From the NCBI GenBank assembly GCA_013265495.1, contig MU058045.1:655986-719985 (forward strand): a stretch of DNA of 64,000 nucleotides. Direction: 5' to 3'. This document shows, one piece after another, positions 9,101-12,712 of this stretch (its first letter is position 1; every line of letters starts with the position of its first letter). Origin of the DNA: Vicugna vicugna. Its lineage: Eukaryota. Under the pieces are notes generated by a model that saw only the letters and a list, made by a program, of their open reading frames with translations, searched no databases and was not told where the DNA came from. The translations under genes and the position numbers were made by a program.

Positions 9101-12100
9101 ATCCTTGTGGGGTTTCTCATTTGGCCTGAGGCCTCCTGCTCCCTTTCTGAGTAACTGCCAGTGACATGGTGCGTACTGTCTCTGATCCTTGCCCTTAGTC
9201 CTCCTTAAATGTACTCCTAACTCCAGAGCTGCCTTTAATCCTACCTGTATTCTTAATCCTAACTTGAACCTTGTTTGCAACTAGTTTTATTCCTAATCCC
9301 TCACCTTAACCTTGTGCTGTTTCTCTTAAAGAACCCTTAGTCCTCTCCCACTGTTCAGGATACCCTCCTCTACACCTGCCTGTCAGGCTAGGTGTGGTTT
9401 TCAGTCTCCTGATGCCTCATCTGTCTGTGTCCTCTTTTCAGAGCTTCACACACTATGGCAGAATGAGGAACGGGCAGCTATTTCTTCTGGGAAACTCAAT
9501 GAGATCTGGCACCGAAGACATGACTATTGGCTTCTGGCTGGAATTGTCCTGTATCCTTTGATACAAATGCAAGGAAAAAAAGTGTTCTCTACCTGGAGAG
9601 AGGGGAACTACAGAGAAGATGAGTCCACACATGGGGATGGGGGTGTAGTGCCACACTTTGTGGGGGATCAGGCCAAAGGGAAAACACATTCATAGCCAAG
9701 CCCTGTTAAATTCCTTGATGAGCCCGTTCCTTCGTTGGCAGCCATGGCTATGCACGGTGGCAGGACATCCAGAACGATGCTCAGTTTGCCATCATCAATG
9801 AGCCTTTTAAAACTGAAGCTAATAAAGGGAACTTTCTGGAGATGAAAAATAAGTTCCTGGCCCGGAGATTCAAGGTGAGGATGAAGGAGGAAAGGAATAT
9901 TGGTGAAGAGGGGCTTGGTCAGAAGTGGACCAGACCTGGTTGGAACATAGGCAAGGTTAACACTTTGAGGGTTGAGGCAACACTTGAGGCCAAGACCAGA
10001 GTATCACCTTATGTTTGGGACTGTGGGCTGGATCAGGGTGGATGTTGGGGTCGCAGTCAGTATTGGTATGGAGCTGGGGTGCTCTGGGCCAGCGGCAAGG
10101 GTAGCATAGATCTTCAGACCCAATCCTCCTGCTCACTGCTGACAGTTCCCTGCACTCACCCCCTCCCCATGCCCTCAGCTCCTGGAGCAGGCGCTGGTGA
10201 TTGAGGAGCAGCTGCGGCGGGCAGCCTACCTGAACCTATCACAGGAGCCGGCGCACCCCGCCATGGCCCTCCACGCCCGCTTCGCCGAGGCCGAGTGCCT
10301 GGCCGAGAGCCACCAGCACCTCTCCAAGGAGTCGCTGGCGGGGAACAAGCCGGCCAACGCCGTCCTGCACAAGGGTAAGGGCCGCGGTGGCCCCGCGCGG
10401 GGGAGGGCCCACAACGCTGCGTAAGTCTTCACCCCGCACCCCTCAAAATCTTCCCACCCCTCTGACCCCTTTCCCCTCTGAACCATCCCCCTCTGACCTC
10501 TAACCTCACCCCTACCCACTTGGCACCCACTTGGTTTTTAGCCTCTGGGCTTTCTGCAGCCAGCCTTCATCCATGCCTGATAGCATTCACATCAGTGCCT
10601 AATAGAAGGACCTTCCCTGCCAGCCTCCATGAGACTGTGCCACGTTCCCTCCACAGGGCAGAACTTCTTCACTGACCCACACACACATACCATACTGCTC
10701 ATAGCACCCTCTCTGGGGCTTTGGCCTTTGTACAGTCCACAGAAATCCTTACCCCCAATCCCACAAATCACATTCCTCACATCTCATTCACCCACCAAGG
10801 CAGAAACTACCACCATCCCACCCTCTGACCCTTCCCCTTGAAACTTCCCTTTGACCTTCAACCCTTCTTCCCAAACCCTCTTACCCTAATAATAATAGAT
10901 AAAGTTCCAAAGCCCTCTAACCATCTAATCCTGTCTGATGTAGTGACTGACTCATGGCCCCTTTGATTCCTGTTTTAATTCTTTGAATCTGTAATACTGA
11001 CCTTCTAACCTCCCTCCCCCCTTACATATTAAAACCTTGATTCCTTAAATCTTTGATACCACTTACCACCTCCCACACCTCCTGACTGTTTCCTCCCCAT
11101 CATCCCCAACCCCAAAACCTCACTCTTCCAGTATGGGATGTTCTGACAACTCCCCGCCCCCATGTCTTCCAATGTCCTCCCCTGTCCCCTCCTTTCCTTT
11201 CTCTTTATATGTCCCCTCTGGTGATCTGGTCTGTCTGCCTCTTTACTTGACTCTTTTTCTTCTTCTGTGAGTCGCTCTTTTTCTGTCTACTTCTGTCATT
11301 TTCTTGGTCTCTGATTCTTTGACATCTGTGTCCTCTCTCCTTCTCTGACTGTATCTGTCCATCTGATTCCTCATCTCTTTTCCTGGCTCCATCTCTCCCT
11401 TTCCCTGTCTTTCTCCTGCCCTTCTTTCTCCGTGGCCCGGGCCCCAGTTCTGAACCAGCTGGAGGAGTTGCTGAGCGACATGAAGGCGGATGTGACCCGC
11501 CTGCCAGCCACGCTGTCCCGAATACCCCCCATCGCAGCCCGCCTTCAGATGTCCGAGCGCAGCATCCTCAGCCGGCTGGCCAGCAAGGGCACGGAGCCTC
11601 ACCCCACACCGGTAACCCTCTTTCCCCCGACTCATTTTCCCTGTTGGTACTCCTCCTGCACACATATAAACACTTCCTTCAGAGTCCTATACAATGTGGA
11701 AAAACAACTTGCTCGAACACACTCATCAGCCTTGAGCCTCCCTGCCTGTATGATACCCCTCAGTAGTTCTGGAGTTTGGCCCATGATGTCTCCCCTACAG
11801 CTTCTTTTCTCTCAGACTGTGGACCCTCTAACTTGGGCTCGCTCTCTCTTCCAGGCCTTCCCCCCGGGTCCATACGCTACACCTCCGGGGTACGGGGCGG
11901 CCTTCAGCGCCGCACCCGTAGGGGCCCTGGCCGCCGCAGGCGCCAATTACAGCCAGATGCCTGCAGGGTCCTTCATCACAGGTCAGCTGGTGACTTCCTG
12001 CCTCCCACTTCTTGCACTCCTCCTTTTCCAAGCTTCATCCCTGCTCAGCTACCCTTTTACTCATCTAGCCCATCTCATTTCCTTGGAAAGTGTTTTATGG

Positions 12101-12593
12101 AATGGAGTAGTTTCGGGCTTTGTGTTTTCCATCTCTTTCTTCTCTTTCTTTCCCATCGTCAGAAACTTCATCCAGATTTTTAGTGGTTCTGTGCCTTGGC
12201 ATCTCTTACCCAAGCCTCCTCTGTCTGGGTTACTTCAGGGAAAAAGAATATGAAATCAGAAAGGGGGTTTAAAGTTGCAACATGTGTTCCATCACGCATA
12301 TGATGGGGAATCTCAGGGAGAGGGGTCTTTCCTGGTCGCCCCATCCCTACCCTAGAAAAGTGGAAGTGGCATGAGGTGACCTAGAAGGAAGAACATACAC
12401 TGTGGTCAGGAAGCGATCGATGATGGGGAGTGAAATAGGGACTGACCCTTCCTTACCCACTTCCCAAACAGCCGCCACCAACGGCCCTCCAGTGCTGGTG
12501 AAGAAGGAGAAGGAAATGGTGGGGGCACTGGTGTCAGACGGGCTGGATCGGAAGGAGCCCCGAGCCGGGGAGGTGATCTGTATAGACGACTGA
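122..12593 (+). CDS. CHD3: Chromodomain-helicase-DNA-binding protein 3 (Mi-2 alpha), 5'-partial: SNF2 ATPase, helicase C-terminal domain, CHD C-terminal domains, C-terminal SUMO-interacting motif VICIDD
   Basis: Exons with AG/GT boundaries and continuous frame: 122-221, 633-824, 995-1195, 1563-1700, 1967-2088, 2243-2416, 2550-2691, 2913-3044, 3668-3785, 4007-4131, 4312-4543, 4831-4997, 5485-5662, 6109-6174, 6643-6728, 6881-7014, 7564-7708, 7891-8053, 8157-8278, 8382-8517, 8631-8732, 8925-9053, 9442-9550, 9742-9874, 10179-10374, 11448-11611, 11855-11981, 12472-12593. Motifs [30 protein letters not shown]; ends [12 protein letters not shown]. Confidence 0.98.
7088..7343 (+). ncRNA. SCARNA21: Intronic composite box C/D-H/ACA small Cajal body RNA (SCARNA21/ACA68-like)
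   Basis: Terminal stem CACCA 7088-7092 / TGGTG 7339-7343; C box ATGATGT 7094-7100; D' CTGA 7113-7116; H box AGAGCA 7204-7209; ACA 7281-7283; C' ATGAAGA 7323-7329; D CTGA 7335-7338; two hairpins between. Lies in the CHD3 intron 7015-7563; CHD3 is the known host of SCARNA21. Confidence 0.9.
9551..9741 (+). other. U12-type (minor spliceosome) GT-AG intron in CHD3
   Basis: Donor GTATCCTTT (9551-9559) is the U12 consensus; branch-like TTCCTTGAT at 9711-9719, 22 nt before the CAG acceptor at 9739-9741; flanking exons join in frame (GIVL-HGYARW). Confidence 0.9.
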
Positions 12594-12712
12594 CCGGATC
12601 CCAGGCCTGCCCTTCACCCAGGCCCCGTCCCCGAGGCCGACCCCCAGCTCAGGCTCTGGGGCCTGCTGCCAGTCCTCTGCCTTCCCCACCCCTTGGGCCG
12701 TCACTGGGCTAG
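10374..12712 (+). CDS. CHD3: Alternative-frame CHD3 C-terminus (about 192 aa) via the distal donor at 10421
   Basis: Exon extended to 10420 (GC|GTAAGT), then 11448-11611, 11855-11981, 12472-12712; no stop codon until TAG 12710-12712. Confidence 0.7.

Follow-up and report, generated by a model that had tools for sequence, protein, structure and literature searches.

A conserved alternative 5' splice site in CHD3 of Vicugna vicugna probably exchanges the protein's C-terminus, as annotated across therian mammals

The 3' part of CHD3 (Mi-2 alpha) lies on the + strand of a 64,000-nucleotide (nt) stretch of Vicugna vicugna DNA (contig MU058045.1, positions 655,986 to 719,985; here called the window and numbered from its first letter). 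On balance, we favor the reading that this gene carries a conserved alternative 5' splice site which exchanges the C-terminus of the protein and which is annotated across therian mammals. Use of the donor at 10421 instead of that at 10375 places exons B, C, and D in the −1 frame, giving a stop-free tail of 192 codons that runs to a TAG at 12710-12712 and replaces the last 137 canonical residues of CHD3. A preliminary description of the window had proposed both the GTAAGT donor at 10421 and this shifted tail of 192 amino acids (aa), and both are present in the sequence as described. The alternative-tail isoform is nonetheless already known: it stands in public RefSeq and Ensembl models, so its novelty is low and it is not a discovery. 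This prior annotation was overlooked in the preliminary description.

The gene was identified by tblastn and Pfam. A CHD3 protein query aligned to the window in 26 in-frame pieces along positions 102-12661, and the matching proteins carry CHDNT, PHD, Chromo, SNF2, Helicase_C, DUF1087, CHDII_SANT-like, and CHDCT2 domains, which is the full CHD subfamily II set. At exon B, identity was 100% for the window and 79-82% for two paralogous loci of the same genome. With subfamily II domains and a sequence closest to CHD3, not to CHD4 or CHD5, the locus is the orthologue of CHD3. The elements of the frame switch are as follows.

10179..10374, + strand: exon A, the last exon common to both isoforms, ending in ..VLHK plus 1 base (G) of the next codon; tblastn match at 10176-10421, 98.8% identity to CHD3 match P0010.
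10375..10380, + strand: canonical 5' splice site, AGG/GTAAGG; five canonical-tail proteins join exon A to exon B at this site.
10375..10420, + strand: 46-nt exon extension, coding for GKGRGG..AHNA(A) and shifting the frame by +1; 30 of 31 aligned rows, among them marsupials, have the identical peptide, which is not found downstream of the paralogues' donors.
10421..10426, + strand: alternative 5' splice site GTAAGT; the intron has no second GTAAGT, and exon B follows directly on the extension in 69 of 98 retrieved proteins.
11448..11611, + strand: exon B, 164 nt, read in two frames; skipped in 17 proteins, with the same frame shift as the 46-nt extension.
11855..11981, + strand: exon C, 127 nt, read in two frames and carrying the RRRR basic cluster of the alternative tail (from the splice model and the tail composition).
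12472..12590, + strand: coding part of exon D, the last exon, read in two frames; the canonical frame ends in ..VICIDD (splice model).
12591..12593, + strand: canonical stop TGA (open reading frame [ORF] 12375..12593).
12593..12709, + strand: 39 codons read in the alternative frame only, lying in the 3' untranslated region (UTR) of the canonical mRNA; exactly 39 residues in 88 of 89 proteins of that frame.
12710..12712, + strand: alternative-frame stop TAG, in the last exon (ORF 12446..12712).

The dual-coded overlap amounts to 410 nt of sense codons over three exons, and the 413 nt first claimed to be coding in both frames is correct only if the stop is counted. The alternative TAG lies 119 nt beyond the canonical stop, and the tail runs 39 codons into the canonical 3' UTR. 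The lengths of the three possible events, 46, 164, and 127 nt, are 1, 2, and 1 modulo 3; neither the 46-nt extension nor the 164-nt skip is thus a multiple of three, and each changes the frame. Because the loss of 164 nt shifts the frame just as the gain of 46 does, skipping of exon B enters the same alternative frame, a second route that the earlier account had missed. Tails are 191-194 aa long by the extension route and 122 aa by the skip route. In rat isoform X10 (P0077), the extension occurs together with skipping of exon C (127 nt), which restores the canonical frame, while a bear model (P0073) enters the same alternative frame by another route. Read-through into the intron would meet the TAA inside GTAAGT at 10421-10426 (ORF 10143..10424). 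As had been claimed, the alternative stop lies in the last exon: TAG 12710-12712 is within exon D, downstream of the last intron, and the mRNA should therefore escape nonsense-mediated decay by the usual rule.

A further alternative exon was noticed in the intron between exons A and B, at 11132-11251 (+), with an acceptor ..ttccag ending at 11131; it would encode a 39-residue hydrophobic end (VWDVLTT..) followed by TGA. An end of the same kind is annotated in dolphin CHD3 isoform X13 (P0078).

To survey annotation across mammals, three protein searches were made, with the last-exon alternative frame, the full tail, and the opossum tail as queries, and two cluster look-ups were added, for 98 proteins in all. 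The last-exon query returned 13 proteins among 682 candidates, the full-tail query 72 among 3984, and the opossum-tail query the same 72 among 1619. Sorted by their tails, the 98 proteins divide as follows.

46-nt extension, alternative frame read to the end: 69/98 proteins.
Exon B skipped, same alternative frame: 17/98 proteins.
Canonical tail: 5/98 proteins.
Other, or unspliced ORFs: 7/98 proteins.

Left out of the tail counts were P0011-P0013, ORFs from contigs that are unspliced or spliced only in part (in two of these ORFs the frame switches several times inside the coding exon), as well as the bear model P0073 (other route), rat X10 (P0077), and P0078 and P0089 (other ends).

The extension form is annotated, as RefSeq or Ensembl predictions, in about 41 therian species, counted by name, from Primates, Rodentia, Carnivora, Chiroptera, Artiodactyla, Perissodactyla, Eulipotyphla, Afrosoricida, Proboscidea, and two marsupial orders, with a shrew, tenrecs, and the elephant among them. 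Isoforms bearing the tail include human X14 (XP_016879554.1/XP_054170800.1) and X18, opossum X1-X6 (X3 being XP_056673538.1), camel X4 (XP_064351273.1), and pig UniRef models. The preliminary description had mentioned a similar tail in mouse Chd3, and it does exist, in Mus musculus isoforms X10/X11 (XP_006532947.1). The predicted human, mouse, opossum, camel, and pig isoforms share the extension peptide, the frame, the stop, and the 191-194 aa tail with the window, and no structural difference was found; by sequence, the window holds the orthologue of these predicted alternative-tail models.

In an arbitrary sample of a 2345-member protein cluster, the extension tail was found in 7 of 14 other listed members, and in the opossum cluster it was found in all members (8/8). 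ORFs that span the extension junction (P0003, P0004) lie on two contigs without introns, of 4244 and 6604 nt, which look like assembled transcripts. In one species, Marmota monax, both frames are annotated as coding, the canonical one in P0085 and the alternative one, by the skip route, in P0060. Each of the genera Bos and Mirounga includes models of either kind, and for Macaca mulatta only alternative-frame models were retrieved (extension, P0091; skip, P0063/P0064).

Several CHD3 models of ~2160-2230 aa (P0015-P0019, P0038, P0040-P0042), which are not window proteins, carry a cytochrome-b5 domain (PF00173). One such pig entry is named CYB5D1, and these models look like read-through with the upstream neighbor gene.

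In the mechanism that we favor, GTAAGT at 10421 would be chosen over GTAAGG at 10375, so that 46 bases are retained and the frame moves by +1; exons B, C, and D would then be read in the −1 frame to the TAG in the last exon, and the mRNA would be spared from decay. The predicted product would keep all catalytic and reader domains and would lose the end of CHDCT2 together with the 137-residue C-terminus, including the SUMO-interacting VICIDD end. A 192-residue Gly/Pro/Arg-rich basic tail, probably disordered, would be put in its place. The likely main effect would be a form of CHD3 uncoupled from SUMOylated KAP-1/TRIM28. We infer four points: that the tail is translated, that the mRNA escapes decay, that KAP-1 binding is lost, and that the second frame is under selection.

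The domain analysis bears on the first part of this exchange. In the canonical protein, the Pfam CHDCT2 domain spans profile positions 2-146 of 146 (residues 1737-1882), whereas in the extension isoform only profile positions 2-127 are matched, and the match ends exactly at the switch. The alternative form, as read from its sequence, loses the CHDCT2 end (~19 positions) and the whole C-terminus with VICIDD; the truncation of CHDCT2 had been overlooked in the first account, and its statements that the VICIDD end is lost and that the new tail is basic were borne out. The tail has an isoelectric point of 11.8 and a net charge of +18; G, P, and R make up 48% of it and hydrophobic residues 10%, and it contains three RGG motifs and a single RRRR. 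No Pfam family was matched by the alternative-frame tail or its exon pieces. A predicted structure of a 277-aa fragment with the skip-route tail had a mean predicted local distance difference test score (pLDDT) of 45.6 and a predicted template modeling score (pTM) of 0.21; the tail was without secondary structure and the model as a whole was poor. The model agrees only weakly with a disordered tail.

As described in PMC3472778 and PMC4274264, CHD3 isoform 1 is held at heterochromatin through its C-terminal SUMO-interacting motif (SIM) and SUMOylated KAP-1. That the alternative form would lose this tethering is a reasonable inference. Binding of RNA or targeting to the nucleolus by the tail, as put forward in the preliminary description, is speculation.

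Conservation of the splice site and of the stop was then considered among the retrieved proteins. All 69 extension-route proteins (69/69) join exon B after the same 16-residue peptide, which indicates a conserved frame-changing splice site, the donor bases themselves being seen in the window only. The alternative frame ends exactly 39 residues after ..DL[YH]RRL in 88 of the 89 proteins that read it, which is the same stop place; the sole exception is an ORF on a genomic contig that has several frame switches inside a coding exon and looks like an assembly error. No truncated tail was seen among the retrieved annotated proteins, and these, as the only source of orthologues, are a biased sample for stops and frameshifts. 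Identities by part of the tail were as follows.

Human versus opossum: extension 16/16; overlap 98/138; UTR part 22/39.
Human versus mouse: extension 16/16; overlap 125/139; UTR part 33/39.

The tail of the window differs from that of human X14 at 5 of 137 overlap positions and at 1 of 39 positions in the UTR part.

Since the canonical third position is the first base of the alternative codon, the alternative protein reports canonical synonymous change. In the window, T before AA, AG, or GA is absent at the relevant junctions (0/29), which is the codon avoidance noted in the preliminary description. Across the alignment, 0 of 22 at-risk columns had a T in any row, versus 42 of 93 control columns with a T in one row or more (Fisher p = 1.3e-5), and third positions were variable at 6 of 22 at-risk columns versus 62 of 93 controls (p = 0.0013). 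At two-fold C/T codons, T occurred at 0 of 5 at-risk columns versus 13 of 18 control columns (p = 0.0075). Beyond the annotated proteins, an exact 27-nt pattern search of metagenome contigs gave 0 matches, and of 596 pattern stretches matched in a search for related loci, none was confirmed.

A control independent of annotation was provided by the CHD4-like and CHD5-like loci of the same genome, that is, by two paralogues at one exon.

Next GT[AG]AG after the donor: CHD3, +46; CHD4-like, none within 400 nt; CHD5-like, +165.
Extension sequence: CHD3, present; CHD4-like, absent; CHD5-like, absent.
G+C at third codon positions (GC3) of the exon-B equivalent: CHD3, 0.84; CHD4-like, 0.43; CHD5-like, 0.90.
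Stops in the −1 frame of the exon-B equivalent: CHD3, 0 in 55 codons; CHD4-like, 3 in 53; CHD5-like, 1 in 49.

The single stop of the CHD5-like locus is a TGA where CHD3 keeps CGA (..DV*AQH versus ..DVRAQH), and it is there despite a GC3 of 0.90. From these sequences, the second donor, the extension, and the open frame appear to be specific to CHD3 as compared with two paralogues at one exon. Since the paralogues are without all three, neither a shared protein sequence nor high GC3 is a general cause of them.

Several observations weigh against the preferred reading. When the protein was kept and synonymous codons were permuted within the tail, the −1 frame was open in 25% of 20,000 trials, and when codons were drawn from exon A plus the tail it was open in 33%; when they were drawn from 967 upstream CHD3 codons, which hold 71 stops in the −1 frame, it was open in only 0.085%. 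The tail has 12 T-ending codons among 137, and exon A, for which no dual coding is proposed, has 1 among 65 with a GC3 of 0.94. The −1 frame is also open across most of exon A (10205-10374), where it has no known use, and the proximal 3' UTR (12594-12947) is open in all three frames, for 117, 110, and 38 codons. The single sequence thus gives the open frame no statistical support. The codon avoidance, correct as an observation, fails as evidence of selection given the 25% of permutations, and it has no weight alone because the tail's own low usage of T at third positions (T3) predicts the absence of T. A crude estimate of (1 − T3)^22 = 0.044 had been made at first and was superseded by the amino-acid-specific permutation, at 0.25. 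The + strand of the 64-kb window has 16 copies of GTAAGT, one of them in the 1073-nt intron, a frequency close to random. Because the single sequence falls short of significance, the evidence for a real feature has to come from the other species and the paralogues. There, the XP models are computational predictions; the tests on at-risk columns are partly circular, because the rows were found through open tails; and a species whose frame is cut by a stop before the last junction might be listed as non-coding and so be overlooked. Neither the full-tail nor the opossum-tail protein search gave a match beyond therian mammals. CHD3 goes unmentioned in the main text of PMC13160074, a survey of reviewed Swiss-Prot isoforms, and has 0 matches in its 8 supplementary files; "CHD" occurs 0 times in the main text of bioRxiv 10.64898/2026.05.28.727796, a source whose supplements may list it.

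The region at 10205-10374 and 12594-12947 was observed to be generally poor in stop triplets.

These observations lend themselves to another explanation, in which the transcript exists but arises, at a low level, as a by-product of competition between the two donors. The frame would be open through the GC3-rich last four exons, the bases would be held by the canonical protein and by elements of the 3' UTR, and annotation pipelines would report the longest ORF, with no selected protein involved. The 25-33% of synonymous resamplings with local codon usage that stay open are as this explanation would have it, and so are the nearly open −1 frame of exon A at a GC3 of 0.94, the three open frames of the UTR, and the absence of CHD3 from the Swiss-Prot-based list of dual-coding genes. 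It does not, however, account well for an extension peptide that is invariant out to marsupials, nor for a stop held in place in 88 of 89 proteins, and the CHD5-like paralogue, of equal GC3, has a stop and no second donor. The presence of the tail in 8/8 members of the opossum cluster and the convergence of two splice routes on one frame also speak against it. We regard a by-product of this kind as possible but not likely.

A separate alternative concerns the 46-nt block alone, which might be conserved mainly as an intronic splicing element, with G-runs just 3' of the canonical donor and a decoy donor that together tune canonical splicing, its coding use being incidental. The block does contain three GGG runs, and its human-opossum identity of 16/16, against 98/138 in the dual-coded part, would be unusual for a disordered peptide. 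Against this, the 10421 donor marks a genuine exon end in spliced contigs and many gene models, folding around the donors showed no special RNA structure, and the account would not explain why a stop is kept 39 codons into the UTR. We consider this account improbable. A special RNA structure at the two donors had been put forward as a candidate and was rejected: the minimum free energy of −36 kcal/mol corresponds to z = +0.42, and 124 of 200 shuffles fold as well.

The favored explanation, a conserved alternative 5' splice site that exchanges the C-terminus, can be extended to a stronger one. The 410-nt overlap might be dual-coding throughout therian mammals, selected in both frames, and missed by curated lists, and the tail might be a working module that retargets a SIM-less, CHDCT2-truncated CHD3 from KAP-1 heterochromatin, for example, to RNA or the nucleolus; this could even be the main marsupial form (8/8 retrieved models). 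We hold this extension to be tentative and, as a whole, rather doubtful. Therian-wide conservation would span roughly 160 million years.

Should it be made, a conserved isoform without the SIM and with a truncated CHDCT2 would be a built-in route to KAP-1-independent CHD3. The dual reading also bears on the interpretation of variants in CHD3, a gene linked to a neurodevelopmental disorder: variants that are "synonymous" in the canonical frame of the last three exons, and variants in the first 117 nt of the 3' UTR, would be missense or nonsense in the alternative isoform.

Other features of the window were recorded in passing. SCARNA21 lies within a CHD3 intron at 7147-7286 (+), with a full-length match to Rfam RF00602 of 132 bits. 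Outside the frame switch, the following were seen.

47949-48020, − strand: tRNA match, one of a cluster of five.
52118-52189, − strand: tRNA match of the same cluster.
54898-54967, + strand: tRNA match of the same cluster.
56575-56646, − strand: tRNA match of the same cluster.
57655-57726, − strand: tRNA match of the same cluster.
39895-40089: run of 195 N, possibly an assembly gap.

A literature search found no paper on the CHD3 alternative tail, and three tail peptides occur in none of the searchable papers. The closest known form is CHD3 isoform 2 ("CHD3.2"), described in PMC3472778 as being without the C-terminal SUMO-interacting motif of isoform 1. It resembles the form predicted here in being a natural SIM-less CHD3 (PMC3472778), and since CHD3.2 naturally lacks the motif, a SIM-less CHD3 is an accepted idea. 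It differs, as far as its published description allows comparison, in that the tail predicted here begins 97 residues earlier in the protein and is both long and basic. A mouse-lemur model (P0089), in which only the last exon is replaced, by 5 residues, may, as a guess, be of the CHD3.2 type.

Dual coding through alternative splicing has been surveyed for human genes, and the criteria applied above were taken from Tress et al. 2026 (bioRxiv 10.64898/2026.05.28.727796). According to that preprint, alternatively spliced dual-coding exons are annotated in over one-third of human coding genes, selection in both frames is seen for 105 transcript pairs, and of the alternative frames for which there is peptide evidence, 63.3% lack preservation even among primates. 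A Swiss-Prot-based survey (Goubert et al. 2026, PMC13160074) lists 1296 genes, and the mean length of its regions is 95 nt in one exon. The CHD3 switch is like the human regions of these surveys in that a splice event with a length not divisible by three reframes shared 3' exons, in that a different, mostly disordered C-terminus would result, and in that the stop lies in the last exon. It differs from them in extent, with an overlap of 410 nt over three exons as against the reported average of 95 nt in one.

Mammalian exon sequence translated in two frames is also familiar from CDKN2A (INK4a/ARF) and GNAS (XLas/ALEX). In those genes, alternative first exons or alternative starts lead to unrelated proteins, whereas CHD3 would exchange only the tail of one protein.

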